A stretch of DNA of 64,000 nt, from positions 750 to 64,749 of the forward strand of contig QPMI01000151.1 of the NCBI GenBank assembly GCA_004431415.1, written 5' to 3'. The notes beneath the pieces were generated by a model. That model saw only the letters and a list, made by a program, of their open reading frames with translations. It had not been told where the DNA came from and made no database searches. Within the stretch, counting starts at the first letter, position 1. Every line of letters begins with the position of its first letter. Position numbers and translations under genes: made by a program. Positions 1 to 57,596 of the stretch are shown piece after piece. Source of the DNA: Cyanophora paradoxa CCMP329. Lineage: Eukaryota > Plantae > Glaucophyta.

Positions 1-233
1 AGCCTGGCCATGGTACCGATCGCTCCGGTGCAAACTGTCCCGATCACGCCGACGCAGCCCTCGCATCGGACATCGCGCACTTCGTTCGGGACGTCAACGC
101 CACGACGGCACGCAGCCGGTAACGTCGCGGCGGAGAGGACGGCCCCCGTCCCGTCGCCATCCCGTCGCTGAACCCGCGTCGCCGTCCCCTCGTCGACTCA
201 CGCGACCGGCCCGTCGTCGCCGGCCCGTCTGAC

Positions 234-3200
234 TTGTCGACAGAGATGGAAACGGGAAGCCGTACTGCGGCCGAGTCCCGTGTTTCCAATTCGGTGTGCG
301 CAGCCCCGGCGGGCGTCACTGCCGGCAGTATCCGCGACCTCATCAACGCTGGCCTCCGCCGCACGACCACACTCGCATGTCCGCCGCCTTGGCTCCCGTC
401 ACGTCCAAGAAAACCCCGCTCTTCACTCGAAACTTTGGCCGTATGCACCGCCCGCGCCCGAACGCCATCAATCCGTCGCCCGCGTCGCAGTCACGAGGTC
501 GCTCACCTTCGCGGCCGCCCCCTCGGCGAAGAGCACGAACTCCGACGCTGACTCTGTGCGGGAGCCGAAGACCCGGACGTACTGCGCCCTGGGGACCCCG
601 TCACAGAGTCGCCGATGGACACTGCACTCGGCCCGCTAACCTCCAAATCGAGCACCGACTCCCCCGCAGCCACCTCGCAGCAGGAGGGAACGTCTCGAAG
701 GAAGTGGGCGGCCGAACCCGAACTACAAGGCCCCGCCGCCAAGATGCCCGAAATCGACTCGCTACCGGCGGTCGAGGGCTGCGAGTCCTTGGTACCCCTT
801 TGCACTGACTGGCTCGACAACGTTGCTTACAACATGCACACTCGCCGTGTTAACAACCGCATGCACGTCGACGGCATCCAGTGCACTGACTGGCTTCGTG
901 ATGGCATCCCTTCGAGCGACCAGCGCCAGATCCACGCGCGTACCATCCTTTACTGCCCGCCCTCCAGATGCTCACGACGTACCTCGAGCCGAAGGGCCCC
1001 GGTGTCTGCTGGCTCGCGTCCGCAACGCTATCGATGCGGAAGGCGACTCGGAGGAGGCGCGCGCGCACCGCTTCCCCAAGCCCCACGACAACATGTACCC
1101 CGTCTTCACGCAGGCCTCCAATTACCGTACCGCGGTATTCACGGAGGATGCGCACATGCCTCGCCGTCGGGACCTGTCTTTCGCCAACGAGACGTGTGCT
1201 GACTGCCACCCCCATGTCGTCGGCCGCCAGGAGAATGGTACCCTTGTTGCCCGCCCCATTCCCTCGGCACACCGTCGTGACGCGCCCAATGACGGACTTC
1301 GTACTGCTCACTCCGCGCTCATCGCTGCGCTTGAAAGCCTCCCTACGTCGCACCCCGTTCGTGACCCGACCAGGGAGATGGAGTTCTTTGTGATCGCCCG
1401 CGACATCTCCGGACACGCGAAGAACGGGCGGTTCCCGATCCGCCGGCGCTCGACGTGAACCCCGGCATCCCGTGCGCTGACGCACTCACGCTCACCACAG
1501 CACCCGCATTGGCACTTGCTGGCGACCCGCCCGCTCATCAACCCGAAAGCCACAGTGAGCACAAGCGTCTGAATGCGGCCGTCACACGCATCATTGCAGA
1601 CACGGCCACTGAGGATGACGTGACAACGTTGCGCACGTGGATCGCAATCGCCCGTGAGACGACGACTATCGCGGCAATTAACACTAACATCTCGAACACC
1701 AACGAGCAGCTTCGCCGCCCTACCGGGGCTGAGGGCGAGCAGCTGTTACACTTGGTTGAAATGGCAGCGATGGCCATCACGAACACGGGCGCCCCGCCGC
1801 CTCGCACGCGGCAGGCTGCGGCCAACCACGTCACGAGTGTACTGCGTAAGGAGCTCGAGGCATTCGATGTTGACACTACGGTTCAGGCAATCGTCAACGC
1901 TCTGTGCGCCCGTCGTGTCTTCACTTCACCGACGGCGCCATGGACACAACCGACGCGCCGCCTGCACCTACGACAACGCTGACGCTCCCAGGAGTGCTGT
2001 CGTCGAGTCCCTCCTGAACCGTGTCAAGACGTCCTTCACGACGCGCGTAACCGCAGCCCAACATTCATGCGCCCCAACCGACGAACGGCCGCTGTCAATT
2101 ACGTTGAGAGCACACTCCGCACGTACCTCCGTGGCTACGACGTCGAGTCTACGATCCTACTTCTCGTCTACATTCTCGAGCGCGAGGTGAGCTACGTTCG
2201 CCTCAGGCCCTGACGCGACTTCGGCAAAGGCTGCTGACGCCTACGCTCGTTTCGTCGCGGCAAACGCTCCGACCGACCCCGTCGCCGGACCCAGCTCTGT
2301 CGCGACGGCAGAGGGCCTCGCCCTGAGGACAAGACGCCAATCGTCCCGCCGACCACGCCCACTCCACCCGCGCCCGCCGTACTGCGGCCCAAGGCGTCGG
2401 AGGACAGGGCTGACAATGACCCCATCAACCGCAACCGAAGTTGCGCGAGATGCTGATGGACATTGCGGAAGACTCGATCACGCTCATCGCTCGTCGCCAC
2501 CAGGCAGCGGGAGGTATGAGCGCGAGGGTGGAGACCGCGTCTTCGCCTCTCGCACGGTCGAGAAGATCATGGTCAGTGTTGGGGACAGCAAATTCTTCTC
2601 TTCCTGTCGCCAGTCGACATGCCTGCACCGTGCCACACGTGCAGCATCGGCCCGATGGCTCACCCGTCATCGTGAACCACCGGCTCCGTGCATCAGTGAT
2701 CAGCATTGCGCACCGCTACTACGAGTACATCGACTCGACCACGGGCAACACGGTGACAATGACTAACGTCGAGCTTCAGGAGCACTGCCGCCTCTGCACA
2801 ACGCCGCCGTACATGGAGTTCGTCCGCAATTGCCCCGTACCGTCGCCAACCTCACGCCAGCGCACGCCGTACCCGAGTACTCTGCGACCTGACGATGCAC
2901 CGGCGGACATCACGCTCGACGCTCTGTACGGAGTGACGATGGAAATGAAGACGCTCTTCCTGCGGATTATCGGTCTGTTAATGGATATCACCCCACAGGG
3001 AACGACGTCTTGACGGGGAACGACGACTGGCCTCGGGTCGCTGACATCTTCCTTAACGTCGACGTCGGCCCCTTCACCGTCCGCGCCAGCACCCTCCGGC
3101 CTGGCGTTCGCGACGCGAGTACTGGACCGATAGGCACTCGGCCAATCATTCTCGCCCCGGAGTTGTCAACACCTCTGGGCAGGACACGTCCCGACTCGCG

Positions 3201-6200
3201 CGAACGACTGTGAACGCGTCGCTTCCCGTCTGCTTGTCGGCACCGGCGTTCTACCATGCTCACGCGTTAATGCACCCCGTCGATGAGCCGAACACGCGCC
3301 TCGCCCGACACCAACTGATCTTCTGCCCTACCCGGTGCCTGAGACCACGGTCGCTGCAGCTGGGGAGTGAGCCGCAGTTGGCGTCGATTTACGTCGCTGC
3401 CGTTCTACACGACTGGCCGGCTCGACAGCGGGACAAGATTAAGCCGCATCTCACTCTCCGAACCAACGACGTCGACATGGAGTACTTGCGACTCGCCGCC
3501 GAGAACGCGCGACTTCGGGACCCGACGCAGTTTTCGGCGAGGTACCTCGAGTCCACAACGTGTTGACAGACATCCTTCGTCGCCGCACGCCTGGAACGCC
3601 GTCCCCGACCACTCCGCCCGACAAGCACGCGCAGCTGCTGGCCGACGAACAGCTCGCACGTGAACTGCAGGCTCGCCTCGACGCCGAAGCTGCCAAGGGA
3701 GAGGACCGGTGCAGGCCGCGGCGCAAGCCCCCTACTTGCAGGCTGCAATCGGTGGTATTGCTCGTGCCGCACCATGGACGCCCGTCGCCGTACTGCGGCA
3801 GCACAGGCTCCACCGCGCCAATCGGCGAGGCACGGGGAACGGTCAGGGGCCGCGCCGCGCGCTCCCGATTCATACCAGCCGGCCCCAGACCCCGGGCAAC
3901 CCTCACTACCACGACGACGACATGACGTGCCCAACGGCACCGGTGACACCGCCGACCGACGCCCCGGAGCCCCCGGCCCCGCGGAACGACCCACCCCCTG
4001 CGCCCGAGGTGACGGCCTCGTCGACGGACACTCCGGACGCCCAGCCCGTTGCACCCGCGACGACGACTCCGGACGCCCAGCCCGTTGCACCCGTGACGAC
4101 GACTCCGGTGGCCCCGACGCCCGCTCTCGAGACGCGGTCTCGTCGACGGCCGCTCGAGATGCTTCGCCCATCGCACCGGCGATGGCGACCTCGCTGACGA
4201 CCCCGCACAGCGTCCCGTCCCCACGGCCGTGGCTGCGGTCTCGACGGCCCCGTCGCCTGCGCCTGAGCTACTGGCCCCGTCCGACGCCCCGCCAGCCCGG
4301 CCACGACTGTGACGGCGGCCCCGCCGCAGAGCCCGCCCAACCCCCGATGCTGCCGATCCCGTCACTTCACCCGACTACACTGCACCGACCGACGCGTCGA
4401 TGCCTGACTCGACGACTGCCGACTCGTCGGGCACTGAGAGGACCGAGGACGTGCCCATGGGCGACCCGCGCGTTTCGAGGGGGATCATCGTCGACACGCC
4501 GACCTTGCCGAGCCCTCACGACGACCGTGACAGTCCTCCTGACACCGACGAAGACATGTCCAGCGACTCGGAGCCCGAGATCAAGGACGTGGCCGCCGAC
4601 CTTGGACACCGCCACGCCTGGACGATCCTTCGCCTCAAGCCCGTGGTGCACAACCAGCTGCGTGCGTACCTGGACACGCCGCGACGCTTCATGGTCACAA
4701 CGACGACGACGGATTGGCGCAAGACCCCTGAGACGCCGACCCTCTTCGCCGCCAGCGAGCTCACGAGCTGCATGCACCTCGCAGCTGCCCGCAGCAACAC
4801 GCCTACTGGGCAACCGTTGCTGGGTACTCGCCCGAGTGACCAGGCTCACTACCTCCTTCAACATCTGACCGAATTCCGCTCCGTCATCCACGTCATCATG
4901 CGCCTCGCGCGGGCTCAGCCCTTCGCGCCTGGGGAGACGGCGACCACGTGGCCTCACCCGAACGACCGCTCGCCGATGTCCTCGGACGGCCAGAGATGCT
5001 GGAGCTGTTTGGTTTGACACCGACAGAGTTCACTCTTGTACACCAGTCCAAGACTCCAGTCGTACCGTGCATCCTTCAGGTGGCTGTCAACCTTGCCCGC
5101 AATCTCCGGACGCTGCACTACGACGTGGAGATGACGGAGAGCGATGAACGGTTCTTGAACTTCGACAAGATCACGAACACGGCGACGCGCCTTGCAACAA
5201 TCAGGCAACTGGTCCAAACTGTCAAGTTCACGGCCCCGCTCACAGGACCTGACGACATCTATCTGTCTACGCTTCGACACGGTTCACCGCCGCCCGACAT
5301 CGCCTTGTCGATGCGTTCGACGGCCCTGGCGCGGGCGTGGGACATCGCTGCATACTTCGACCATTACAAGTGGGACGAGACGCGCGACCGCTACGGGGAT
5401 AGCCGATTTGCTCACCTCTACGACGTTCGTGACCCAGCACCGAGCTCCGACCGTCCATGGCCGACGAGTCACGCGCCGTTGCTGTCAATGCTCACCGAGC
5501 AAGTCGAGAACGTACTCCGCCTCGTCAACATCACAGCCGACGTCGAGGGCCCCGGCAACTTCCTGCGCCGTTACTACACGTCCCGTTTCAACCCGAAATC
5601 CGACGCGAACCCGGCTACGAACCTGCGGGCGACCGCCGAGCTCGCGGAGGAGATCCGGCTGAACAGCCAGTTAGCAGTGGTCGCGGCACGCGATGTCCAT
5701 CGTCTGCGCACGCCCCCCGTCAGCGAGTCCGACCTACACCACTGTCTTCGGCACGGACTGTCCCGTCACCGCTCCGGCGTCCTCCCCTCAAATTTCACGA
5801 ACGTCGTCGCCGCGTCTGTCACGGAGACGACTGCGCTGGCAAGGCTCGCCGAGCTACATGACACCACCGTTGTCGCGATGTCAATCACTACGTTCATGCA
5901 CAAGCGTCAACTCGCCAAGAAGGGCAAACCGATCCGTCTCGAATCGCGACTGCACGCCCCCGTCTTCACCCCGAAGCAGCCCGAGCCAGCTGTCGAGCTC
6001 TATTACAACTCTGACCGTTACATAATGGTGCACCCTGAAGAGGCGGCGCTCCTGGCGTGCAAAACTGCGTGGCGCTCCCATATCCTCCAGCTGACTCTCG
6101 AGGCCATGCGTCGCGCGTACAAGCTCGAGACGGAGTCAAGCACTCGTACTGCGAGCAAGCTTGCTTTCGGCCTCGTCGCTCGACTCGACACTGCACTTAG

Positions 6201-9200
6201 CAAGGCTACGACCACCCAGCGCTTGGCGGTAACACGGGCCTTCCTCCTGGACGCCGAGCATCGATTGAATCTGTTCTACTGCATGCTTTACCCGCGCTAC
6301 CGCGATCACCTACTCCCTGTCCTCCCCAGTCCGATGGTACCCGTCACCGACCCTCTCGCCGTCCCGGTCCCACGGCCCCTGAGCGCGACGTTGACGAGTA
6401 CGGATACCTGACACAGTGGACGTCGACGGCATCGACATCTTGCCTCGCGTTCCTGACTGGGATTCCCTCGTTGGACTTGTCGACGACATGAGCAAGGACA
6501 CTTTCTGGAACTCCAACACGTACTTCGGGCTTCGCGCCCGCGCTATGGTCTACGGAACAGAGCGCAAGCGCCCCCGCGAGAAGCGACCGAATGACGAGAA
6601 GTTGCAGAAGAAGGAGCGCAAGGCCGCCCGGCTCACTCCCGAGGAGGTCGACTCCATCATCTCCAGAATTTTGAGCGAACTCCACACTGTTCCTTTCAAG
6701 GAGGTGCTACTCTCGGAGAACGCTGACATTCCTGACGTCTATTTCTGGGCCTTCCTCAACGAGGAATGGGCGAAGGGCTTCACGGTCGTCGACGGCGCTG
6801 GCTACCAGCACGGAGTGTGGCCGGATCTGAGCGGCGTGATGGTCCGACGGGAACCGCGACCTGATTCGACGGAGAACGAGCGCGACACGTTCTATGCGGG
6901 TTTTGGACGGCGCAACAATCACATCAACGGGGAATTATTCGCCCAAACGATCAACGACTGGTACCCAATCCGTCTCCACAATCCTCGCCCCCACTCCCGT
7001 ACGGCATGCGCACATACAGCCCCGAGGAGACGCGAGCTGGAGGTGACTTCCTACCTCTGGATACTGATCCGGGACGGGATACCTCCTATCACATCTTCAT
7101 GACACCGCTTCTCTTCACGAACACGGACTTCCTGGCCACAGCGTACTGCAAAACGATCCAGGAACATGGGCGACACGCGCCCCACATCTTCGCCGTCGCG
7201 GCTCACATCCTCGGAGGCCCAGCCCGTTCGGACAGACGGCTGATCTGACCGAGGAGCTCACTGTGGAGGACGGGCACAGACCGGAGGAGCTCCCGGAGCC
7301 GCCGCCGGTCGAAGAGCTGGAGGGAATCCCGACTCGGGACCCACCCCCAGTTCATCCCGCCACCACGACAAAGAAGTACATGCACGTCCTAGGTGAGGTC
7401 CACATGCCATACGTGCTACTCGGCGACTCTGTCTTGAGGCATTTCTCCGGCGCGTCCCGTACATGCGCCCATTCCTCATGAAGATGCACGTACGCTGGTC
7501 GAACTTCTCGCGAGCACTCAGTCGTGTCCTACGCTACGGCGTCGGCCCGGCACCTACCCGTACCGCGCCGGTGCTCCCGGCCATGGCGAACTCAGCCAGC
7601 ACAACCGCGCGGGCCTGCCCTTCCGATCGTTCCTGATCACGGCCGCCGACGAGTTCCACCCGGCCAACAAGTATGCCGACTACTTCGACTGCATCTACGA
7701 CGAGGACAACCACGCGCACCTCCGTGACTCCGCTTCACGTCAAGATGTCGAACGATGCTTCTACGAGATTGCCATGCCCGACGACCTCAACGCGCCGCCC
7801 ATGACTCTTACGCCGGCCAATGCTGACCTGTGCGGCCCTCGAATCGTCCGATTCACGCACGTTGCACCGGCCGGACCCAGCCGCGGTGCCCCCAACACGA
7901 TCCAGAACCGCTCGCACATCACTATCTTCGACGCGAACAACCGGAACACCTGGCAGCAGATCATCGCGGGCACGAGGAAACCCCAAACGAGGCGGCGGGC
8001 CGCACCCGTGCGGCCCCGACCCCAAGTACTTCCCGGTGTCCGTCAATGACTACACTGGCCCTGGGGGCGTCGTCGTGTCTCTGCGTCGTCGCGGGCCCAC
8101 GGGCACCGCGCCTGCAACGCCCCCGTCGTCCACCAGGTCCTGGGGTTCCCGCTTTCGGTACACACTTGGGTGTACGGAATCGCAGCGTACCTGGCGGCGG
8201 CAGTCAAGCTGCACGGTGCCTTGTCGTTCTTCCTCGAGCCCCTACCGGGGAACTCGGGAACATCATCATCGACTACGTTCGTAGCCACGAGGATGAGCTG
8301 CACTTCCGCTTCACGGCTTCAGGCGAAGTGGCGCGCAGTGCCAAACTCGACAAATGGTACGAGGTCGAGTACCCTGACTGCGAACGCGTCGACCCGGCAC
8401 ATTTAATCACAGCCTTCGAATCCCTACTGCACAAGGCAACCAACGACTGGTTGGCGGTCCAGATCAAGCACGAGACACCCCGGCGGCTCGCGAAGATGTC
8501 GACATGGATCGAAACCACTGCTGGCCCGTAGCATTCCGACTCCCGGATGGAGTCATCAACGCACTCAACGCCCAAGTCCGGGGCGCTGACTTCGATCCCA
8601 CGAACGATCCGTCACACCCGCATCGTCCCAGTGTCTATGACGTCAACGCGAGCGCAGTGCGCAACGCTATTATGGATTTCGAACAGCGATACGCCGACAT
8701 ACACGAGCAATTCCGTCACGCCGAATATGGCAACTTCACATTCGATCCATTCTACAATGAATTCGGCGCCGCCATCTTCAGTCGCGAACCGCAGGCGCGG
8801 GCGCTACTCCACGGTTGGTTGGAACAATTCGTTTACAATCACGCCACCGTCGACGCGGCGACGAGGCGGCCCATCACGTTCACTAGCCGCGAAGCCTACC
8901 GGGCGGTACAGATCGTCGACGTCCTCCCCTGCGTCACTCCCTGGGCGATCCGGACAACGACAGCCTCCTTCGTCAGATCCCCCACATTTACATTGGTCAC
9001 GGCCCCCACGGCGCGCCTGTCGACCCGTACGAAGGCCGCACGCGCTTCACTAACATCATGAACTACATCACTACGACGAAGGCAGAGGAGTCGCGCGCGT
9101 ACATTTGGGACCCGCGCCTCGACGGCAAGATCAAGCTCGTGGGCACGGACGAGTACATTCGTCGGAACCCTGGGATTGCGCGCAAGCCCTTTGTCCGACC

Positions 9201-10560
9201 CTTCGTCGTCTGGTCGACCGACTTCAAGGATCTGCGCACCAACGAGCCGACGGGACTGGCACGCTTCGGTCACATCCAGGGTGTTGTCTTCAAGCCATCT
9301 GGCAGTAACAGGCCTCCGCGTCGTAGTCCTACGGGGACCGAGACGACGGGAACCTCTGACGGCGACGACTCCAGCTCGGACAGTGGTGGCTCCACCGCCG
9401 AGTCCGTAGCTCCATCGGAGACCCCGTCGGCCGGGACGCCGAGCCTAGCCTCGCGCGTGCAGTCGTCCGCGTTCGCCCCCCACGGCCTCCTTGGACCGCT
9501 CACACGGCAGCACACGTACACGATCGCATACAACGACCTCACTAATCCCAGGACGTCGACGGATCTCACGATGGGCTGCTGGCTCCTCTACTCTGGACGG
9601 GGACCGGACTACGAGCGGATCACGTCCGCGCGATACCGTGCCTTCGAGGACCCTGAATTCGCTGCCAGTTATCACTTGTACGACTGGTCGCCGCTTCAGC
9701 GGTCTCACCAACTCAACGCCCACGCAATCCTGGAGACGCTCCACGAGATCGAGAACTTTCGGTGGGATTTCACAACCTCTCAGGGCCTGTCAGCCGACCT
9801 CGCTTTCACTCGCGCCTTGTTCACTCGGGCGGCCTTCATCCTCAATTCAATCGGCCTCGCGGCGTGGGACGTGGTCCTCCACAATGACTTCCGTAGTCAT
9901 GACGCTCAACGGACACGTTTCTACGAGCGGCACGTACTCCAACGCGACACGCGCCTCCGCCACGCTTGGCCCCAACTCGTCAAATATCTCCGGGCGTCTC
10001 TCTCGCGCCACCGCGAAGCCATCCCGTTCCGATCCCCCGGAGAGCCTGGCTACCGGCCGGCTGAACGACGGGATGGCGCAGCGGGGACCGAAGTTGACGC
10101 GATCAACGAGATTCACTATGGCTGGCCCAGCAACCGCCACCTCAACAAGCTCGCAAACGCCGACTGCAAGCCCATCCTTGGCGTCGGATACTTTTCAGCC
10201 ACAATGCGCAATCACCGGCCCCCGCTGCGTCTGTCGGCAGCTCCCTGCAGGGCACGCCCATTCGCCGCGACGGACGTCCTCATGAACGTGCACAGGCGGA
10301 CAACCACGCGGAAGCGACCTCGCCTCAAGCGGACGGCACCGCTCCCGCCAGCCAGCGTCATCTCCGGTTCGACACCGTGCACACCGTATGAGCAGAGCTA
10401 CCTCGCCTCGCTTCGCGTCTGCGCGGCACGCATGTTGGGATTTGACGACGTCGAGGACCCCCTTGACGTTCCCCTCTTCGGCGACGGCGGCCCGTCAGTA
10501 CCACACCCCATTGCGCGAATGACGGACACGAACCGCACGCTCAGAGAGCGCATCAACGAC
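234..10560 (+). CDS. N-terminal polyprotein region of the retroelement, function unknown, broken into ~20 frame segments
   Basis: ORFs 615-1202, 823-1458, 1455-1982, 2441-3013, 3010-3213, 3210-3566, 3560-3925, 4400-5017, 4948-6411, 6416-7102, 8504-9061 and 9058-11283 abut or overlap on one strand and mostly step by -1. Example at ~1435: TTCCCGATC plus one C reads F-P-D-P-P-A-L-D-V into the next ORF. Confidence 0.65.
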
Positions 10561-10990
10561 GGCCGAATCTGCGTCAACTTGCACATCGCCGCTATCGATC
10601 ACCGACGACAAGTCCTTCAATACCTCCTCACCAAGGCATTGGTGGATACAGGAGCCGCTGCGGACGTACTCGACGGCAGTATCGCCGACAAACTGCCAGG
10701 CCTTCGCTACAGCAACGCTCCGCGCGTGCACCTCACCGGCTTTGGAACGGACATGACTGCCTATGCGCGCATCGCATTCATTGCAATTAAGGTTGGTCCG
10801 GTCACAATTCCGCGGAAGGTCCTCGTCGTCGCGCCTGGTCTCATGGGCAACACTCCAATGCTACTCGGCCTCACAACGCTGGTGGCGCTCAACGCTCACA
10901 TCGTGCTCGACCCAGCAAATTGGGGAATGACGATCACGTCGCCTGACTCCTCGGATGGCGAACGATTCCACGTCCCTTTTCGGCTGCGGG
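10560..10990 (+). CDS. Retroviral-type aspartic protease domain
   Basis: KALVDTGAAADVL (DTG at 10645), LTGFG flap and PMLLGLTTL (ILGxD-like) in ORF 9058-11283. Confidence 0.9.
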
Positions 10991-11018
10991 CCAGCACGAC
11001 GGCGGCGTTCTGGTCCGA

Positions 11019-14000
11019 TTGGCGAAGGACATCACTGTACGGCCGGGTGAATCGCTCGTTCGATGTTACATGCCACAAACGACTTCGAACACGACTCTCG
11101 GCGCACCGGAAGTCCTCCTCACTCCGCCACCACTCCTCCTCGACGACGACGGCTTCGACGGAGCCGACGAAGTCGAATTCTTGGTGCCATACCAAATTCA
11201 CCGCAACCCAGCACACGGCACGTTTTTCGTGCAGATCTGCAACCCTCACAGGCGGCCTGTCCGCCTGCGAGCCGGAACTGTGATTGCGGAGACTGAATTC
11301 GGGACTTGGCCGGAGTCCGAATTCCGTCCACACGAGAATGTCGAGACCTACCCCAAGGGGTGTTACAGCTCCTGGACACCTCAACAACAACTGACATTCC
11401 CGATCTCTTCCGTAGCCGCGCAAATCTATGAGAACTTCAAGCCTGTTGTCGTACCCCGACGCTCGCAACCACGGCGCTACATCTCCCGAGCCCGACGCCT
11501 CTACCCGGAGGTCTACCACCGACGACCGCCCGAACCCAACTGCAAGGAGGGCGAGGCGGCGCATGTTGGCTCCGTCGATGCTGCTGCCGACATCCCGCTA
11601 TCCCACGAGGCCAGCGAGCGTCTCATGTCGTACGTCGCACGTGTCGTCACCCCTTACACTGCTCGAACCGGCGATCACTTCAACGACAAGGAGCTCATGG
11701 AGCTGGCCAGTTTCTTCGAGCCTCACTTCGCCCGCTTCGACTCCGAGCCGATGCTGGTTGGCCCCGCAGTCGGCCCCACGGTGCCCATCGCGTCCGTCAA
11801 TGCCGACGCTCGAATGGAGCCCCCGTCGAGTGACACTGCGCCTCCTACAAAGCCATCGCCCGAGACCATCAAGGCGATGGTGGACGCCCTGTTGAAACCA
11901 TCGGAGTCGAACCCCGACGCCCTTCCCGAGGATCGCACTCAACTCCAGAACCTTCTCACGCAACGCCAGCACTGCTTCGCCCAGAACATCAATCCACGCG
12001 AGCTCCTGAAGTACAAGCACAGCATCCGACTTCTGCCCGGCGTCCCCGCCAAGCACCTCCCGCTGTACACCGTCCCTCGCCGGCTCTCTCCGCCTGCGGA
12101 GAAGGCTGCGAAGGCGGAAATCGAGAAGCTGCTACGCGACGGTCTCATCGAGCCTTCGCAAGCTGGTTTCGGCAGCCCCGTGGTGCTGGCACCGAAGAAG
12201 GATGGCACGATGCGATTCTGCGTCGACTACAGGAAGCTCAATTCCCTCACGGAACGTGATGTCTTCCCGTTGCCACGCATTGAGGACCAATTGGAGCGCC
12301 TACAGGGTGCGTCCACGTTCTCGACTGGCGACGCAACGTCGGGTTTCTGGCAGTTGGAACTCGACGAGGAGTCACGTGACCTGACGACATTCATCGTCCC
12401 CTGGGGAATGTACAGGTGGAAAGTGACCCCTTTTGGTATCACGAACGGCCCAGCGGCGTTCTGTCGAGCCGTGACGTCAATTTTGGGCAACCTTTTGTCC
12501 ACCTGCGTCGTGGCGTACGTCGATGACCTCACGGTCCACTCGCCGAACGTCAAACAACACCTTCTCGACCTGGAGGCCTTCTTCGCTGCGATCGACCGCG
12601 GTAACCTCAAACTCAAGCCCAGCAAATGTCGTTTCATGGTGCGGGAAGTCGAGCTGCTCGGATTCCGTGTCAGCAGCGACGGCATTCGCATGGACCCCAA
12701 GAAGGTTGAGATCATCTCCAAGATCACGGCGAACGAACTCCAGACTGTCGAGCAACTCCGCAGTTTCCTCGGCCTCACGGGCTTCTACCGGCGCTTCGTA
12801 CAGAGTTACGCGCGACGGGAACTTTCCCTGCGAGACCTCCTCACGGACGCACTACGAGCCGACCGGCTCAACTTGGTGTGGAATGACGAGGCTCTCGCTG
12901 CGTTGGACGACCTCAAGAAGGCGATGTGCGAGGACATTGTGCTGATGCTGCCCGACTTCACGAAGCCGTTCATCATTTACACGGACTGGAGCAAACGGGC
13001 CATGGGAGCGGTGCTCATGCAGGAGGACAAGGACGGCCGCGAGCGCCCGATCGCATTCATCAGTCGTACTCTGACAAACATGGAGCGCAAGTACCAATCA
13101 CCAACGGAGGGCGAATGCATTGCGGTACTCTGGGCGGTTAAGGTCTGGCACCACTACTTCGTCTGCGGCCACCCGTTCACGATCCGCACGGATCATTCGG
13201 CGTTGCAATGGTTGAAGACACAGGAGCTGGCGAACAACAAGACGCTTGGGCGCGCGGCCATCGCCCTCAACCACTACAACTACACTATCGAGTACCGCAA
13301 CGGGCGGTCGAACGTCGTTGCGGACTGCTGCTCTCGCCTTGCGGAGACACACGCAGTGTACAAGCCTGGCGGCGCTGACGGCACTGACATCACGACTTCG
13401 ATACCAGACGGCGCTCACGGGTTCGGTGTGCCCGATGCGGGAGACTACGACGATCCACGCGAACTCTACCGCGTCGCCATCCACCGCACCTCCTCGGCCC
13501 TGCAACATACTCTGGACGGGCCGGCGTGGATCCCTACTGGGGATAGACGCCGCGCCACCACGCGACCCGAGCACCTTGCCCCGGCGCCACCGCGCCGAGA
13601 CCGCGACGACCCTCAGACTTCACGGCGACGTCCAAGGTCGTTGACGCCCGACACTCAGCGAGTGCGTGACATCGTCGAGAACGGCGGCCTGGAAGACGTG
13701 GAGTCCCAGATCACGCTGGAACGGCTCCACGAGAACGGCGCCCTCTCTGCCCCCGACGTCGTACCCATGGAAGTTGACACGCCTGCACCGGCCGCAGCGG
13801 CAGACGAGGCGGGCGCGACGGCCCCTCCTGCACGGCGACGCCGCGGGGTGACGAACCTCGAGCATACACTCGACGGCGCGGCCTGGCTACCGGCCGAGGG
13901 TCGCCGCCGCCGACTTCAAGTTCGAGGACAGGAGAGCTCCGCTGACGGGCTTCAAGCTCGAGGACGGGAGAGCTCGGCCCGGAGGCCTCGGTCTCAGTCA

Positions 14001-14920
14001 CCGGAAGGAGGGGGAGGGGGTACAGACGAGGAGAGCGAGCCGTCAAGACGGAGCACGGCTTGGAGTGTCCCGCGCCAATACCAGCGACGGCTTGAAAAGG
14101 ACTACGCTGACCGCCTCGCCAGTGATCGCGACAGACGTTCGCGTGCGGCCCGAGATCTGCACGAAGCCTCGCGGGAGAGGACGGCGACGACGCTCGAACG
14201 GCGACGCCAACTGGCAGAGATGGGCCGTACCCCGTCTGAGATCGACGCGCTCGTACCCCTGCCCTCTGTTCGGAACCGAACCCCGGAGGAGCGGCGCAGA
14301 CGGCGACAATCCCGCAAGGCGCTGAACGCCAAGGCATGCCCCGTACCGCGGGTGAAGCCTCCCAAGGGCAAGAATTCACGGCAGTCTCGATATGCCATTG
14401 CGCCCCCGTCGCATCTCGACGTTGCTGACGAGGAAGAGTACATGCACTTCCTGCAGCAAGAACGTGACCTCGGTCGTCCGCGACCTGATCCCACTTCTAG
14501 CAGCGCTATCGCCCCGCTGGACGAAGGTGAAGGCGCCCAGAATGAGCCGACACACGTTCGCTTGCCGCGTGGCACCGTTGTCATGGACACCTGGAGCGAG
14601 GGCCCCCGCCCCCTCGTTGACGTTCCTCCGCCACCGACGATCCGTGAACTTGTTTCCGATGGGACCGCGGTCATCATGGCTCAGGCTCGTGACCCTCTTT
14701 GCCAGATGGTGTTCGCACTTCTTCGCGAGAAGGAGAACCTGGCGCGCTGTCACTCCCACTACACTGCTGGTGAACGTGACCCGGAGGTGCTTGGGAGCTG
14801 CATTCTCTGCAAGTCTGCACGCGATCGCTTCGCTCGTGAAGCTACTCAGTACACGATCGATGAGCAAGATACCGTACTGCGGTTGCCCTTGCTCCCCACT
14901 ATGCGGCCTCAGATCGTTGT
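11019..14920 (+). CDS. pol: Pol: reverse transcriptase, RNase H and a low-complexity insert
   Basis: RT motifs [42 protein letters not shown] and AYVDDL (12516). RNase H motifs IYTDWS...GAVLMQ...TEGECIAV...TDHSAL...ADCCSR. Confidence 0.97.
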
Positions 14921-16180
14921 ACCCCAGAGTGGCGGGAGAAGATTGTTCACGCTTACCACGATGACTGGGCTCACCGTGGTGCCCCCATTGTTGCTCGGCG
15001 CATCGCCTCACGGTTTTGGTGGCCGGGCATGACGACTGCTGTCCATCGCTACGTGAAGACGTGCCGACACTGTCAGTTTGCCAAGGCTCACAAGAAGCCG
15101 AAGTCACAATTCACTGTGATCGAGTCTGAGCATCCTGGCGACTTGCGTCAAGCCGATCACTTCCCTATGGCGCCCTCTGAGAACGGTCGACTTCACCGTT
15201 TCACACTTGTGCACATTGACGTCGACGCTTTTACCAAGTACCCTGAGATTTTGATGCTGACGGAGGCTGATGGTCGTGCCTGTGAGTGGGCTGCACAAAC
15301 TGTGTACGCGAATCACGGCCCTTGCAAGCGGTATCTCACGGATAACGCCAAGGTCTTCACGCCTACTAGTCTCTGGGGCAAATTCTGGACTCGCCAGGGT
15401 ACTCGGTTGATTTACGCTCCCACGTCCCACCAGTCCACGAACGGCGGTGCTGAGCGGCTTGGTGGCATTTACAAGCGCTTGGTGTATGCTCTTTGCGATG
15501 AGAACGGGGAGGACAATTCCCATTGGCCTTTCTATCATTATCGCGTGCTCTTCGCTCTCCGGACCACGATTCACGCTGCCACTGGTTTTTCACCCGCCGC
15601 TCTGCACTTTGGACGAGAATTGATGTTGCCTGGCGATCTTCGTCTCGACCTCACCCTGCGCGAACCTCACGAAGATCCCGTTTCTCTCTACGATTACGCT
15701 TTGTCGGTCGCTCGAGCCGCCCGCGACCAAATCTCTGCCGTCCGAGAACACCGCAAACTTTACAACAAGAAGTTGCTTCGCTATGGCACTGGCCGTGAGC
15801 CGCATCGTGTTTTCAAGCCTGGTGACAAAGTGTTGTGCTGGATTATCAGCGCGAAGACCAGTAACGTCAAGCGCACTGGGCCTCGCAATGGTTGGACTGG
15901 CCCTTACACTGTCACTGAGGTTCACTCTCACGGTCTTTTGTACACTGTCCGAGGCGATGACACTTCACTGGTGTATCGCTCGCGCGAGGTTCTCATGCAC
16001 GTTGATCTCATGATCGCTTTTCACGAGCGTCCTGCCAATGTTCTCGCTCCCCGCAAAGCCGGTCGCCCTCGCAAGGCCCCCGTGCCTGTGCCGCCCGATC
16101 ATGAGGTCCCCGTGCCTCCGCCACCTGCCGTTGATCCCGATTCACTTTCCGATGATGACACGACGGATGACGAGTCTTGA
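14921..16180 (+). CDS. Integrase (H2C2 zinc finger, DDE core, GPY/F motif, C-terminal AT-hook)
   Basis: In the frame of ORF 15029-16180, extended upstream: EWREKIVHAYHDDWAHRG...RFWWPGM...YVKTCRHCQ, then ADHF / TDNA / GAER catalytic triad, WTGPYTV and RKAGRPRK. Joined to pol by one missing C in GTACCCCAG (~14920). Confidence 0.95.
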   Translation, partial: TPEWREKIVHAYHDDWAHRGAPIVARRIASRFWWPGMTTAVHRYVKTCRHCQFAKAHKKPKSQFTVIESEHPGDLRQADHFPMAPSENGRLHRFTLVHIDVDAFTKYPEILMLTEADGRACEWAAQTVYANHGPCKRYLTDNAKVFTPTSLWGKFWTRQGTRLIYAPTSHQSTNGGAERLGGIYKRLVYALCDENGEDNSHWPFYHYRVLFALRTTIHAATGFSPAALHFGRELMLPGDLRLDLTLREPHEDPVSLYDYALSVARAARDQISAVREHRKLYNKKLLRYGTGREPHRVFKPGDKVLCWIISAKTSNVKRTGPRNGWTGPYTVTEVHSHGLLYTVRGDDTSLVYRSREVLMHVDLMIAFHERPANVLAPRKAGRPRKAPVPVPPDHEVPVPPPPAVDPDSLSDDDTTDDES

Positions 16181-16388
16181 ATCACAGCCCGTACTGCGGT
16201 TTACCGGATTCACTTCCGTTGTCGATGACGTGCCCTTCACTGGGATGTGGCTTGCGAGTTTCGGGAATTCTCTCTTGGCGCTGGGTCAGCGGCTGATCAC
16301 TGCTGCCTGGTTTGCCCTCAACCAAATGCGCAGCTCTACATCTCTTCTGATCCAGCCGCGTGGAAGCGTCTGTGAGGACCTGGAGAGC

Positions 16389-17485
16389 TGTTGCCGATAG
16401 GGTTTCCTAGCCGTTAGTGCTTCGTTTGCACTTCGTTCGCAGTAGTACCGTGACTTGACCCGCGGCTTCTCGCGATTTCCTGAGTCACTGTACCCCTGTA
16501 CGAAGATGCGACCCTAGCTACTTTTTCTGACTCTAGCTTGATACTTTCCGGTAGCCGTGTCCTAGGGTACACAGTAGTCTGTGATTAGCAGCTTTCTCTT
16601 GCAACGTGACAGCCTGCTCGCCTGCTGCTGGTACGCTACGGGAAGGTTGCTAAGGTCTACTGGGACGTATAAAACCTCCTAAAACACTCCTCCCGGACTC
16701 GTGGTCGTACCCGTCGCCGGCTTGCCGAGCCTACGGCTCCTTCTACTTCCCCCCGGCGGTTTGCCGGGCCGGACCCTCCGGCCTTTGTTCTTGATACCGG
16801 ACTGCCGCCTTTGCCTTCGTCTTCTGCTTCGCTGGTCGCGATCGTATCCCGCCGGCGCCGGCGTACTTCTTCGTCTTCTAGTTTAGTTCGGTCTGGTTCG
16901 GATTCTGATCGTAGTGTTGATGCTAGAGTTAGTTTCAATACTAGCTATAGTCCTCGTGCTCGACCTGTTGTTCGCCGTCGTTTGCAGTTCGATTGCCCGC
17001 CTCGAGCCCGGCCGGCTTTAGTGATTCCTTTGACTGTCCTTTTGCCTGCTCTTGATCCGCCTGCTCCGCCTCCTGTGTCCTCCTCGACCTCGTGCCGTAG
17101 CTCTGCCCTTTCGCATCGTCCTGCTTCGCCTCCGCCTCCATGTCGTCTTGTTGTTCCTCTTACTTGTCTTCTTCCTGTTATTTATCTTTCTCAATTTTGT
17201 CCCCCGCTTCTTAGTGATGTAATTCCTTCTGATATTGATGGTATCTCTAGCTCTGGCTCTTCTTCGTGTCAGTTATCCTCTGTCCCTAGATCTGCTCGAT
17301 TTATCGTCTCTTCTCGCTATCGATCTGTCTCGAGCTCTGTGTCTTTCCTTTTTTATTGTCGATTTTGGCTCTTTGTCTTATCTTTCTTCGTGCTCTTGTC
17401 TTAGTTTTTTTGCTTTTTTGTCTTTATGCCCCCTGGGCAGCCCCCGCAGTGCTGGTGTCTAGAGACTGTGGCCGGTAATTCACCA
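16389..17485 (+). repeat. Candidate 3' LTR / terminal region of the retroelement
   Basis: Starts with TG after a weak purine tract (GGAGAGC), has TATAAAA at ~16668 and ends CACCA. The last 55-165 bp are repeated elsewhere. No 5' partner is visible, so the left boundary is a guess. Confidence 0.35.
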
Positions 17486-18115
17486 AAAAAAAAACCGCGG
17501 CACTAATTATAACGCCGCCAGCTGGCGCCGCCGCGGCCCGCCGGCCGCCGCCGCGTTATGCTGGTAAACGGTTGCGATCAAGATTTCGCTTACCAAAAAA
17601 AAGATCTCTATATACTATATAGCTGCAATATTTTCCATACATAAATCATTGAAATCTAACGACTAACCGCAGGACTTGCGCGCAGGCTCGCGGCGGCCAC
17701 TGCAGCTGCAGTTCCAGTTCCGCAGCGCCCGTCCCCCCGCGCCCCTTGTCCCCGTGCGCGCGCTCCACGCCCGCACGCCGTCCCCCGATGTGTGCGCTCC
17801 CCGCGCCGCGCTCCCTCCGCGGCCCCCCGCGCCCCGGCTCTGATGCCCCCCGCGGGCCCCACCGGTCCGCCGCGCCCCTTGCCCATCCTCAAGCCCCCCC
17901 GCCGCGCTCCTCGCCTTCCCCCCCCGCCCTCGGTGCGCGCCCGGCGACCTTCAAAATCCAATCCATCAATCGATGCGCTTCCGGCTCTATAGCTAGATCT
18001 GCTCGCTTTTGTGGATACCCATGATATTTACCGGCCATGCATGTGGCGAGTAGTGGTGCTTTTCGAATCTGACCGGGCCGCGGCCGGGCCGGCACCCGCG
18101 CCGGGCGATCGCAGC

Positions 18116-22986: not shown

Positions 22987-25472
22987 TCACAGCAGCTGGG
23001 GCCGGGAGAGCGCCGCGTTGGCAATCGCAAGAGCGGAAGCAAAGGCAACAGCCGCGCTCCAGATTGAAGACGCTTCTGCGCCTGCAGCTGCGGAGCTTGA
23101 GACAAAAGGCCTGCGCTCGGAAATATAACAACCATCAATTGCAACTCGACGACGAGTCGACGACACGGGATCAATATTTCATCGGCGTTTAAATTATTCT
23201 GATCGAGAACGGACGCACACGGACGCGATCGTCGACGTCGGGGTCCACTGGAAGGCCTGCGTGCAGGAATTCGAAAGAAATGATTAATGTTCGGGTCACC
23301 GGCGGGAATTCGAAGGGTCCAGAATCGAATACGATCTCGCGATAAAATGGCTCAGAAATTCGCGCACGTTCTGGAGGGTGAACGCCTGCGCGCGCGAGTT
23401 TGAAGTGAGCACCCAAGTGCAACCCGGTCCGTCATCCAAATTATAAAGCGGACAACACTTTTCGCGCAAGAAAGCGGATTATAAAAAGGATTATAAGGCG
23501 CCAAATTATAAAGCGGATTATATTATTAAAGTTCGAAGGAAGCGCAAGTGCAACCCGGTCCGTCATCCAAATCATAAAGCGGATAACACTCTTTTCAATT
23601 ACTCAAACGTGCTCACCTGAAAGGCGTCGTTGACGCTCTTGATCTGGATGCCGTAGCCAGTCCCCTGGGAGAATTGGAGGAGGCTGCGCGCCGTCTGCCG
23701 GTTGCAGTTCGCCGAGAAGGGGGGGACGCCTGCGCACATACGGATTACATATTATATATATATAATTTAAGATGGCGTGAAACTTGCGAAGTTGAAGCAT
23801 CGAAATCGATCTCGCAAATTCAAAATCAAGCTTTTGTGCGCACGGAAGGTGATTTGGGTCGAAGAAAAGATGCGGGGGTTGAGGGCGGGGCAGCTCAGGC
23901 CGGACGACGCGAGGATCAAGATCTCGATAGGCTCCCCGGCAGGGAAGTTTTCACCGAACAAACTCACTTCTCCGCCCGTCTGCAGAAATAGAAATCGAAT
24001 TGATTACGTATGCGAGCTTAGCCATCGGATCGTTTTCCGAAGTTAATTAAACAGCGGGGCGATATCGATGCGCACGGGAGGGGCCTGGATGACGGGGCGC
24101 GTGAGGCGTGCCGAATTCGTCGCATCGAACTCGAGGGTGACCCCGGGAAGGCCCGTGTTCACGCCTTGCACGATGATCCTCGTGATGTTGAGCGTCTGCG
24201 TGCGGGTTCCACGCGTACGTCAGCATGCGCAAAGCAGAACAACATCGACATGTACACATAAGGCTTCCGATGATCACGAAAAGTTGAGTAAATTCCATGA
24301 GCATGAATTCGAACCTTGTGAATTGCGGGCGGCGCCGGCTTAGCTGTCGGGGTGGGAGTTGGTGCAGAGGGCGACGTGGTCGGGGTTGTTATTGGGGCCG
24401 CGTCAGGGCTTGAGGTTGGGGTCACAACGGCGGCCGTGGAGAGCGACGGGCTGGGGCTAGCACTGGGCGACGGGCTAGCGCTGGGCGGCGGGCTAGCGCT
24501 GGGCGAGGGGCTTGCGCTGGGCGACGGGCTTGCGCTGGGCGACGGGCTAGCGCTGGGGCTGGGCGAGGGAGACGGGGAGGGCGAGGGAGAGGAAAGACTG
24601 ATAGGCGTAGGGGGAGGTTTGGGAGGGGCCACGCAGACGTTGCTGGAATTGATGTTTGGCGACTGGCAATCGCAGAGAGGCTTGCCGTCTTGGGAGACGA
24701 TGGGGCTGTTTGGAGAGCATGCGGGGCGCACGCAGAGATTTCCACTGTATATCAGAGGAGAGTCGCAGACGCATAGAAGCTTGCCTTCACCGCTGAAGAT
24801 AGAGTCGTTGGGAGAGCATAATCCGATAGGAACCTTGCTGTTCTTGCAGAGGAAACAGGCAATTGCAGATAGGGGTGCCGGTTTCGCTGTTGAAGACAGG
24901 GGCGTTTAGAGAGCATGTTTGGACACAGTAGTTGTTTCCATCGGTGTGCACAACGAACGTAGTTGTTTCCCCGAGGTCGCCGGCGCCGGCTTGGCAGCAG
25001 CATGTGCCGTCGGCACGCTGTCCAGTCTTGCAAGGGGCAAGACCTTCGCCGCAGCCAGGATATCTGTGGGAGATCGACTTCGCACTGACGTAATTGTGAT
25101 CGAACTTGCGCGTGCGGGGTGCACGCGCACGGTCTGCACCTGCAGCTGCCAAGGCGGATTCGGATTGAAATTCGTTCATGTATATATGTGCGGGCGCTGA
25201 TCATGAATTGATCATGACGCACGTGCAAAAGGCTGTACAAGTGTAGAACTAGTGCGTAGGCTTGAGGCTGCCGGTGCGGAGAATTCGACGCCCACGCGCT
25301 CTGAAATGTCCGAGTATACGAAGCTATAGTTGGTGCATTTCGGGTGCTGGAACCAGTGGAACGACGCCTCAGACGCGTTCGCGACTGAGGCGCTGGCCGT
25401 AGCAAGGAAAAGCAGGCCGAAACAGGCGAACGCCGCGACACCCCACGCACACGAACGCGTGCGGTCCATCAT
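22987..25472 (-). CDS. Secreted/surface protein: signal peptide, Cys-rich repeats, (SP)n stalk, IPT/TIG-like domain, hydrophobic C-terminal tail
   Basis: N-terminus MMDRTRSCAWGVAAFACFGLLFLATASA; three CS..G.P.C.C..P..C units; SPSPSPSASPSP; TGGEVSLFGENFPAGEPIEI...SSTQITF; last exon ...WSAAVAFASALAIANAALSRPQLL*. One apparent frameshift near 24820. Confidence 0.75.
23414..23590. repeat. Intronic ~46-bp direct repeat
   Basis: CAAGTGCAACCCGGTCCGTCATCCAAAT(T/C)ATAAAGCGGA(C/T)AACACT at 23414 and 23545. Confidence 0.85.
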
Positions 25473-27486: not shown

Positions 27487-30400
27487 TCAACGTCGTGTGG
27501 AGAAGAGTACGTATACCGCGACGACATGTGCAGCAAGCAGGGCTGCCAGCTGAAGCTTAAAGGTGCCCCCATGGCCAGCCAGGCTCAGATCCAGAGCGGC
27601 GCCGGAGAGTTGAGGCGCCGCGGTGGTGGATGCCGCGCTGCCCGGGGCGAGATCCGTGCTCACGCTCCAGTCGCCAAACTGCAGTTCGCTCATTATGTCG
27701 GTAGCGATTTGTATGATACTCATGATTTCGATCGATTTTTGAGTGATTGTGTGTGAGGGTAGCTATAATTATAGAATATTCAATATTAATGGAGGGCGAC
27801 GCACTGTGACGGAAGTGATGCCCAGCGAAGCCCCGGCGGCCTTGCCAGCATCCGAGTCCGTGTAAGAGACGATGGCGAGGAGAATCGCCTCGGCAGGGGC
27901 CCCCGGGATCCCCGTGCTATTGAACGATGTGGTCTGCGAAAGGTCCGCCCACATGCGCGGCCATGCCGGGGCGCTTGTCATCAGGAGCTTGAGCGCTAGC
28001 GGGCCGCGCCATATATATATATACATATATAGAAGAGCGCACGAAGCTGTAGGTCATGGTGGACTGCTGGAGGAGACGTCGACTTCGGCCGCGGGCAGAG
28101 GAGCGCGTCGCCACAGTCAAACCGGCGACGAGCAACGAGTTCGTGCTGGCGGCGAGGGCTTGCTCGCAGTTCACGATCACATCCGCGAAGGTAGCTATAG
28201 TGCAGACCGCCTGCTCGTTCACGATTCCTTTAGACACGGTTTCTCTCCGATGATGTACTACAGTATAATACTACAGAATTCATGACCAATCCACCTTGAC
28301 AGCATGGGCGATTGAAGCAGCGCGCGAGGCCGCCTGCGTTGCTCCGTTTGCTGCTCCGTTCGGACAAAATTAATTATGTAAAGAATCAGAATATGTATGG
28401 AGCGGCAATTTAAAATATACATCGGCGGACCGCGGATGTAAAGGGGCCCAGCGGAGCTGTCAGACTCGTGGCTCGAGGGAACAAGGACGGAGCCGTTCTG
28501 CGAGTATATATAGGGCGCACGTCACATGTACGGTTATACGTATACGTGCTTTGAATTCAAGCGAGCGTCACTCAATGGCAAGCGCAATATGATTGCTAGC
28601 TTGCCGTGAGTGCGACTCCGTCGACAATGATCTCTTCGGGGCTGGAGGCGACGGCGACGCCCGCGATCGCGAGGTCGGCGAAGGCGCCCTCCTCCTTGAC
28701 GCTAAGAAGCATGTCCGCCGCGATCTGCGCACGAAACCGAATAATTTACAGGTGTTCGACCCTTCTACAACGACGAGAAGGGTCGACGTCGGGGTGCTCT
28801 GCATGCGCAGCTCCAGGGGGCCGTACGGACGGACCTCGACCGCAGTGGTCTCCCTCTCGTCGTCGTCGACGATGACAAGGTCCAAGAGCGCAGTGCTGGT
28901 GCCGCCCACAGCCGCGGCTAGCAGCTCCCTAGCGACAAAGAACGCTGAGACGATCTCAAGATTAACGGCCCGAAATATGAATCGGAGCGGACCGCCGCGT
29001 TGGATTGGAATCCGGCAGCTGCCTGCACGGCGGTCTGAATCGGAACTGAATGCTATTGGACGAAGCCGCAGCCGCTTCTTGAAGGTCGGCCTGGTTTCGA
29101 GCGCGCGAAATGTGGCGTGATTAGTATGCAGTTGGATTCGCGTCCGGCATTGGCATTCGGATCAACCGAGGGCCAGCCGCAATTTTGATATTAAAGCACG
29201 CACGAGAAAGCGACTGGACTGCACATTGCACGCTTCCGCGAGCGAGCCCGCCGCGACCGTGATAACGAAACTCACCTGCGTTCTCGCAAATTTAATTCAG
29301 TAACTTCAATTCCCTGCAGCTGCACCGCTAATGCACCTGCACAGGTCCGGAACCTCTGAAACGTGTTCGAGTGCACTTCACAGAGAGAGTCGAGAAGGCC
29401 CCTGCGAAGCCCGCAGCGGCCGCGGGGTCCGCGGCCGTTACTGCGCATGCGCATGCCGCAGTGCTCGTGATCGCGAGCCTCGGAGTCGTAATTATGAGAA
29501 GACGCACACTGTCCGCGGATCGTTGATCTCGAGCTCTTGACGACATTGCCTGTGCGGTCCGTCGTCGCCTGTATCTGCAAGGTTTTCATGATCACGCTTA
29601 CAATTAAGATCGATTTTCCGGATCCGGAATTGATCAGATCGTGATCATATGCATCACATGTACATACATAAAACTAGTTAGCTCAGCGACTTGTCAATCA
29701 ATAATGAATGAGATCGAGGAATTCGAACACTTTAATTTGCACCTGTGCAATGCTCCAGAATGCTCTCATAATCAACTGGCCGTCAGTTGTGTTGACGGCG
29801 ATATCGATTGAGGCGAAGCTGCGGTGAACAAGCGAAGGTTAAAGGGAAGTGCGCGTGCACAGCAAAAAGGCTATGGCCATGATCTATCGGAACGTGCCAC
29901 TAGTACTGTGTGGGGAATATCCGCGGCGCCTGGCCGGAATTCGAACGTGTACATGTAATTGAATAAGGTATATATTTGATCCAATTTGAGTACTACGCCG
30001 TCAGTATCTAGGAATGCTGGAGCGCAGATCGTAGTTTTACTATAGCTAGTTTAGAAGTACATGTTGCTATTCGCGCACCCGTTGTTGGAGGCCAGGGCGG
30101 TCAGACCGGTGCTGTTGAGGCTGAGGGGGCTGGCGAGGGTGGCGACCGTCGAGCCGGCCTCGCCCACGGCGCCGGCTCCAATCAGGCTCTCGATGCGATT
30201 ACTGGTCAGCGACGCCCGCGGCCGGTCCGGAAGCACCCTCATTGAGGTCATAAACGAGTAGCCAGTGATCGTCGCCTTAATCTTGTTTGCAATCGGGGAC
30301 ACGTAAATCGGCGGAGTCGGAGAAGGCCAAGGCGTGGGGCTGGCCGTGGACTCGGTCGCCACGTCGGGATCGGCAGATTGCAAGGCCGAACGCGCACGCG

Positions 30401-44337: not shown

Positions 44338-44911
44338 GCGGTTGCGAGTGTGCGAGTTCATGAGTTCATAGCCTGCATGACCCGCATTCAAATAAACCCA
44401 CTGCCGGCGCCGGGCTCGAGCTTTTCAGTCTGCATGACCCGCGTTTTAAAAAACTGTTTGAACCCACCGCCCGGCTCGGGCTTACTGAAATACCCATCTG
44501 CAGGTTGCAATTGCCCTTCGAATTTCCGTTGAGATCTAGATCTAGATCTGATGATCTCTGCACTTCAGCGCGCAATGATCGCGAGGTCGAGGCACAATCG
44601 CGAGTCGCGGACTGTACTGCGGCACATGTACATGTTGTCTGTCCGACAAATTTAAACTATGACTAATGCGCCAAACTGCAAGTTTGTTTAATCTACAGAA
44701 GGCTATCTAAAGGCGCGATTTCAATCAACGTCAGAACAAAGGAATTCGAATTCGGCATCTTCGAATTCTCTGTAATTATATATAAGCGAAAGCGAAAGAG
44801 CGAAATGCAAAAGCGTATTTATCTGACGATATCGACGAATTGATATCGCGAGTTCACTGCATTGTGCGTGTGCTGTTATATATATATTAAGGAATGAAAG
44901 GCCTCACTGAC

Positions 44912-47041: not shown

Positions 47042-47094
47042 GCCCCCACAGTGCTGGAGTAGACTAGAGGCTGTGGCCGGTAATTCACTAAAAA
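47042..47094 (+). repeat. Degenerate copy of the retroelement 3' terminus
   Basis: GCCCCCACAGTGCTGG...CTGTGGCCGGTAATTCACTAAAAA matches 17440-17490. Confidence 0.85.
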
Positions 47095-47132
47095 CAAATA
47101 GTACTATAGCTACTAGCTAGTACTATTAATAT

Positions 47133-51916: not shown

Positions 51917-52079
51917 GGCCACATGTACAGCCTGTAAACACCAGCACTGCGGGGGCTGCCCAGGGGGCATATACAACAAAGAGAACGACTGAAATAAGAA
52001 AACTAAGGCAAGAGCACTATGGACAAAGACAAAGAGCCAAAATGGACAGCAGAGGAAGAGAGTCCGAGAAGAGACGACA
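51917..52079 (-). repeat. ~165-bp fragment of the retroelement 3' region lacking the last ~15-20 nt
   Basis: Reverse complement aligns with ~17305-17473, including ATGCCCCCTGGGCAGCCCCCGCAGTGCTGGTG. Confidence 0.88.
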
Positions 52080-57370: not shown

Positions 57371-57596
57371 GGCCTCTTTTCCTAAATAAAAACACGCGCG
57401 TAATGCAGTGACCTCATGATCACGATATTGATTCATCAATGTCGCGATCGATATCGTCAGATAAATATGCTTTCGCATTTCGCTCTTTCTTTCGCTTATA
57501 CATATATATCATAGTATGTTAAATAAGACGCCGACTTCGATTTCTTTTGTTCCGAGGTTGATGGACATTGCGCCTCCAGATAGCCTTCTGTAGATT

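Follow-up and report, generated by a model that had tools for sequence, protein, structure and literature searches.

A giant Ty3/Gypsy-type retroelement in the glaucophyte Cyanophora paradoxa, with a long insert that appears to lie between nucleocapsid and protease

We analyzed 64,000 nucleotides (nt) of Cyanophora paradoxa CCMP329 (contig QPMI01000151.1 of assembly GCA_004431415.1, forward-strand positions 750 to 64,749), hereafter the window, and all coordinates given below are positions within it. Positions 1-16180 are most of a multi-copy Ty3/Gypsy-type retroelement of this glaucophyte alga, and overlapping open reading frames (ORFs) cover the + strand across the whole of this interval. 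The coding features are listed here in order; X stands for a letter that is supported by sequencing reads and absent from the window, and that was inserted before translating.

1-743, + strand: Pro/Thr/Ser-rich linker of ORF1, following the Gag nucleocapsid (residue 726 of gene model P0133 falls at nt 10)
744-2095, + strand: insert block 1, 454 amino acids (aa) with X at 12 read-supported letters, unrecognised
2096-4980, + strand: small globular pieces and a long Pro/Thr/Ser/Ala-rich linker (about 3700-4600), presumably continuous judging by net letter counts; gene models P0124, P0001 and P0135 map here
4981-10570, + strand: main globular blocks of the insert, open with X at 12 places; a sister family is collinear from about 6740
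10571-10973, + strand: aspartic protease, the last domain of ORF1, with DTG at 10645 (Pfam; start approximate)
10974-11014, + strand: predicted -1 frameshift signal, with C CCT TTT at 10974-10980, a 6-nt spacer and a hairpin at 10987-11014
10981-11283, + strand: remainder of ORF1 in the zero frame, which overlaps pol and runs to the ORF1 stop (from the ORF listing and phase)
10980-11900, + strand: start of pol, a beta-rich segment and then a linker, conserved in four other Cyanophora models
11900-13340, + strand: reverse transcriptase (RT; YVDD at 12516) and RNase H (Pfam, motifs and a match to Ty3 RT)
13341-14860, + strand: low-complexity linker between RNase H and integrase, about 550 aa, with an internal duplication (from contigs)
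14861-16180, + strand: integrase, with an H2C2 zinc finger, D-D-E core and GPY motif (Pfam and motifs); stop at 16180

An earlier note on this DNA had proposed a giant Gypsy-type element, and the domain content bears this out. Pfam families occur in the order of Ty3/Gypsy retrotransposons, which bear long terminal repeats (LTRs), with protease (gag-asp_proteas, E = 2.9e-6), RT (1.3e-31), RNase H (7.7e-33) and integrase (H2C2, 6e-15), an order that the motifs also give. The catalytic motifs of protease, RT and integrase are intact. Among solved structures, Ty3 RT-RNase H was the best relative (E = 4e-66, the next protein distinct from it reaching 5e-40), and Gypsy-type RT/RNase H Pfam families occurred in all 120 among the matches listed. 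The coding hallmarks of Ty3/Gypsy elements are thus present in domain order, in RT affinity and in Gag knuckles 5' of the protease, the last of these in other copies.

The close relatives were EukProt gene models of C. paradoxa itself. Apart from the contig of P0135, which may be the present locus, at least 14 contigs carry pieces of the family, and the best pol models are more than 99% identical; the copies have a young and intact appearance, not a decayed one. Insert and pol are joined in one gene model in P0003, P0004, P0005, P0123 and P0133, and the earlier note's concern that other copies might lack the upstream 10 kb was not borne out, as those copies carry it. We also compared positions 1-18000 of the window with contigs from four of the 18 public sequencing runs that contain at least half of the sampled words, and contig depth was flat over 1-16200 within each DNA run. 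Of the runs that we guessed to be RNA, X15 covers the element, X17 covers part of it and X19 none, which is evidence neither for nor against expression. In two DNA runs, a low-depth variant contig at 5833-6165 (91-92% alike, omitting 43 nt at 6008-6052) is an older, decayed copy of the family.

No CCHC knuckle lies inside the window, so the earlier statement that none precedes the protease stands for the window, but it fails for the element. Gene model P0134 (g13696) has two such knuckles, at residues 553 and 572 (Pfam zf-CCHC, E = 2.5e-6). It shares the Gag region with P0133 (531 of 535 residues), whose N-terminal Gag region continues into the window at nt 10; moreover, P0134 lies on one contig with P0147 (g13698), two models apart, and P0147 matches the insert. 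About 746 aa of Gag are therefore placed 5' of the window, and since Gag lies some 750 aa upstream, the element is larger than had been stated. ORF1 comes to about 4,420 aa up to the slip site and 4,520 aa up to its stop, pol to about 1,780 aa and the fusion of the two to about 6,200 aa; the distance from knuckles to protease is about 3,730 aa. A capsid fold was not identified in the Gag of P0134 or P0133. We rejected a candidate 5' LTR start 213 nt upstream, since the branch in question turned out to match a tandem Gag repeat.

Within the insert, globular-looking blocks alternate with Pro/Thr/Ser-rich linkers, and codon use is like that of pol. Not one of 19 upstream frame pieces reached the curated Pfam cutoff (sub-cutoff matches such as EAD10 and LEM were all that appeared), PHROGs matched none of 10 pieces and NCBIfam none of eight, and PDB sequence searches with the insert gave nothing usable. 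A phmmer search of 1.84 billion representatives with P0002, which covers much of 4457-9058, returned 10 hits, all of them C. paradoxa models. A word-index profile search found P0130 only, and we regard it as weak because it missed known relatives; a scan of JGI metagenomes found no relatives among 600 pattern matches. About 3,700 aa of insert are without a match to any known family in these searches, in keeping with the roughly 3,500 unrecognised residues first reported. The check that had been suggested for novel domains, AlphaFold followed by Foldseek, yielded no usable fold: AlphaFold2 runs on two insert models, with 3-4 alignment rows, had predicted local distance difference test (pLDDT) scores of 33 and 29. 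The Foldseek and VIA matches of the first of these, weak capsid rows included (E > 1, Z < 5), were noise, and the single lead from an ESM Atlas search of the insert (0.75) was rejected.

In a sister family whose RT is 74% identical, about 1,430 aa are collinear with our insert, starting near nt 6740 and running up to the protease, at 22-35% identity; P0130 aligns to part of our insert with 27.5% identity over 592 columns. Given that both match at the protein level, we conclude that the insert was maintained as protein. A distant family (RT 54% identical to ours) is represented by P0155 (tig00020629_g12399), whose model of 4,924 aa places CCHC at 560, DTG at 3008 and pol after that. Its insert of about 2,400 aa occupies the same slot and does not match the present insert at BLAST E < 0.8; P0155 and P0156 make up a second giant family with its own unrecognised insert. 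On comparison of these sequences, the interval between nucleocapsid and protease appears to serve as a cargo slot that holds unrelated proteins in different families. One clade (FastTree support 1.0) took in all 24 Cyanophora-type RT rows in a midpoint-rooted tree of 70 rows, built from 120 hits by dropping five short ones and then omitting every second non-Cyanophora row; the tree holds no reference clades and no row for the planarian element Burro, and several of its Cyanophora labels were assigned by contig-name style.

Burro (GYPSM1) is a close parallel. This giant Gypsy element has an ORF1 of 4,873-5,140 aa with pol in frame, and its cargo includes BIR, MATH, ankyrin, BCL2 and env-like segments, with a dUTPase-like piece between protease and RT (PMC6431247). 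It shares with our element an N-terminal Gag with CCHC knuckles, thousands of residues ahead of the protease, and then protease, RT, RNase H and integrase; in both, a giant ORF begins with Gag and holds its cargo ahead of the protease. The two differ in that Burro carries Gag and pol in one ORF, whereas pol of the Cyanophora element lies in the -1 frame after a real change at 10974-10980. Burro's cargo has named domains, whereas ours has no Pfam match and varies by family. The Cyanophora fusion is also longer (about 6,200 against 4,873-5,140 aa), and its host is a glaucophyte rather than a planarian.

Lying ahead of the frameshift, the insert would be produced at the level of Gag, once per capsid subunit. 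The protease would cut the product at the Pro/Thr/Ser-rich linkers, Gag would pack the RNA, and RT, RNase H and integrase would copy and insert the element. Our tentative preference is that the insert supplies released, soluble accessory proteins that might act on host control such as silencing or protein turnover. What inclines us this way is the parallel of Burro, together with the host's methylation of its repeats (PMC12344493) and its homologues of RNA-dependent RNA polymerase (PMC3700990). A structural role, in which the insert stays on Gag and enlarges or scaffolds a particle for packing an RNA of about 20 kb, seems to us unlikely. It would fit an insert present 1:1 with capsid, and packaging capacity has been cited as a limit on retrotransposon size (PMC6431247); however, related families of similar size use unrelated inserts, which a scaffold explains poorly.

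The change of frame between protease and pol is real and not a sequencing error. ORF1 and pol overlap at 10947-11283, by more than 300 nt, and the contigs that cross the junction have no indel there: over 8490-14044 (two runs) and 8759-14044 (one run) the sole gap is at 8925, and a fourth contig, 5811-13819, leaves no gap for the protease/pol site. In all four runs the junction is therefore free of indels and joints. This is the point at which the earlier idea of one huge ORF gives way to two, with pol in the -1 frame. The heptamer C CCT TTT stands in the phase required for a -1 slip. For the sister family, one DNA with the same -1 offset accounts for both the zero-frame tail and the start of pol (44 of 44 residues). 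Three families have the Pro-Phe encoded by the heptamer at 103-109 aa past DTG, and two distant-family models terminate 35 residues beyond that Pro-Phe. From these sequence features, we infer -1 ribosomal frameshifting at C CCT TTT. The RNA of about 20 kb would be translated into ORF1, and the majority of ribosomes would halt at 11283, giving a Gag-insert-protease product of about 4,500 aa, while a minority would slip at the heptamer into pol and make the Gag-Pro-Pol fusion.

Pol might instead be reached by splicing, as in the plant element Ogre, or by internal initiation. Every gene model that has both domains does span the junction by a predicted intron, and in Ogre the gap between GAG-PROT and RT is a partly spliced intron (PMC6317226). 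Yet the predicted introns vary between copies, the two ORFs overlap rather than being spaced, no joint was seen in any of the four runs, the heptamer is in phase with its Pro-Phe kept in three families, and the pol N-termini share no start Met that would suit internal initiation. We consider this route to pol quite improbable and retain the predicted frameshift.

Upstream of this junction, the frame breaks are assembly errors, letters that the window has lost. The earlier note had observed that successive ORFs mostly step by -1, and a codon model trained on pol alone traced a + strand path through 1-16177 in which 30 of 38 steps were -1. Relative to short-read contigs, the window is about 61 single letters short. 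At 12 or more places one extra letter was present in all four runs, among them 14921, where a missing letter had been predicted at about 14920. In 21 of 22 single-letter cases the extra letter extended an existing run. The proposal of homopolymer deletions by error or decay thus survives as to assembly deletions and not as to decay, as the copies look intact. Two shifts that the Viterbi path placed at 13911 and 14017 were absent from contigs and were set aside.

Since the contigs hold these extra letters and two long stretches read open once X is filled in, we attribute the upstream shifts to the assembly. Further contig comparison located 12 missing letters in 740-2095, and with these 744-2095 is open for 454 aa with no stop, as were nine of 5,000 random placements. 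With 12 X places (10 located and two known to within a 445-nt interval), 4981-11280 is open for 2104 aa, and none of 2,000 random placements was. For the rest of ORF1, 1-735 and 2096-4980, continuity is inferred from net letter counts: these agree with the codon-model frames in nine of 11 intervals, the contigs carry a net 13 extra letters in 1-743, consistent with the frames, and with a net gain of 60 letters the stretch from nt 10 to 10980 comes to 3677 codons exactly.

Several points weigh against this reading of the locus. The Gypsy assignment comes from coding features, with the 5' end (LTR, primer-binding site and target-site duplication) lying outside the window. Gene models with predicted introns, on an error-prone assembly, supply both the Gag link and the sister-family layouts. 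The hairpin behind the heptamer is no stronger than shuffles (z of -1.3 at best) and is not significant alone, and the same frame offset was traced in the sister family only. No function can be assigned to the insert, as the accessory role follows from position and analogy only. Two of the 11 intervals depart from the local frame call, one explained by the letters located in 740-2095 and the other by totals only, and single indel places were not seen in 1-735 and most of 2096-4980. This last point would suit an upstream 10 kb made of several separate ORFs or nested fragments, as would the fact that no sister-family homology was detected upstream of about 6740, where the sister models may end short. 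Against such a patchwork, two stretches totalling 7.6 kb read open, net letter counts hold the frame across the remainder, and contig depth and codon use run on as in pol, so that we judge it very unlikely and keep the single polyprotein.

Other known systems share parts of this layout. Ty3 has the same domain order, with a Gag-Pol of only 1,547 aa. Ty3 shifts by +1, ahead of the protease. In Ogre/Tat elements the ORFs lie about 274 bp apart and are joined by splicing, there is an extra archaeal-type RNase H, and extra ORFs are separate (PMC6317226); the Cyanophora ORFs differ in overlapping at a slippery site with no joint, with the cargo inside ORF1. An additional archaeal-type RNase H was not found here, as Pfam gives one RNase H stretch in the pol ORF and the RNase H-integrase linker is of low complexity. 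Retroviruses such as HTLV-1 have a -1 pro-pol frameshift between protease and RT (PMC5009743), and differ in having env and a gag-pro shift too and in lacking a giant insert. The split of GAG-PROT from RT-RH-INT is therefore not new in itself, because it is known from Ogre, with splicing, and from retroviruses, with frameshifting.

The least probable of the roles for the insert is that of an envelope or spread module that would make the element an infectious virus-like agent: Burro does have env homology between BCL2 and the protease (PMC6431247), and a hydrophobic stretch near nt 8190 is shared by this family, the sister family and P0130 (hydropathy 1.62, 1.97 and 1.18), but our insert, set beside the membrane-anchored envelope glycoprotein of env-bearing, errantivirus-like Gypsy elements, has no clear membrane span (19-residue hydropathy maximum 1.62) and a cysteine content of only 1-2%, and the inserts of two families are unrelated.

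We are fairly confident of the architecture and regard the giant Gypsy clade as apparently undescribed. As the earlier note had supposed, literature searches gave no published description of the element, with the limit that they did not cover Repbase, Dfam and paper supplements, which might hold an entry. The C. paradoxa genome paper puts LTR elements at 1.77% of the genome and has no instance of the word 'gypsy' in its main text (PMC6704402); this share may be too low, because many gene models are pieces of elements stitched together by false introns. If our reading is true, this would be, after Burro, a second giant polyprotein among Gypsy elements, longer and probably of independent origin. 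The host alga is culturable, its copies are intact and near-identical, and there are several families, so that size limits, cargo function and the swapping of cargo inside Gag become testable; some 3,700 plus 2,400 aa of protein have no relative found outside C. paradoxa. A bolder and doubtful extension is that the clade is made up of giant elements that are still active and whose polyprotein, at about 6,200 aa, exceeds any so far noted for a retroelement; their hypervariable slot might present 2,400-3,700 aa of family-specific proteins with new folds at capsid level and serve anti-silencing or cell-to-cell spread.

Two stretches of pol merit description. The beta-rich segment at 10980-11900 lies where Burro has its dUTPase-like piece and may resemble it, a likeness that further comparison did not confirm; it had no Pfam or PHROG match. 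The linker between RNase H and integrase is unusually long, as it is in related families too, and at 14044 the window is short of 144 nt relative to the contigs, in frame.

Downstream of the stop at 16180, two further features follow.

16374-16686, + strand: candidate purine tract and candidate 3' LTR start, with TG at 16389 and a TATA-like sequence at 16668 (from the sequence and a unitig end)
16687-17494, + strand: very high-copy T-rich repeat with a GC hairpin and an A tract at its end (from contig depth and loose ends)

The purine tract, the TG and one DNA unitig with its end at 16418, which is 30 nt beyond 16389, suggest the start of the 3' LTR; other unitigs stop at different points. Depth over 16687-17494 is tens of times that of the interior, and this interval is either the rest of the LTR or a separate repeat. 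Because loose contig ends lie at 16686/7, with others at 17493, this copy may be without a piece at 16686/7. An Rfam scan of 10800-17700 gave no match. The last 55-110 nt of the repeat recur three more times in the window, so that this GC hairpin terminus is found at 17432-17493 (+), 47042-47098 (+), 51927-52048 (-) and 57600-57656 (-). It ends four different T-rich stretches, is followed by an A tract in three of the four, and is a very abundant repeat end.

Elsewhere in the window, inverted copies of a repeat of about 1.5 kb lie at 44690-46351 and 56275-57596, some 10 kb apart and 83-98% alike in pieces. ORFs with Ser-Pro repeats at 24159-24905 (-) and 30051-30734 (-) presumably resemble algal cell-wall glycoproteins, and an exon at 61541-62308 (+) carries what we take to be a methionyl-tRNA synthetase-like N-terminal motif.

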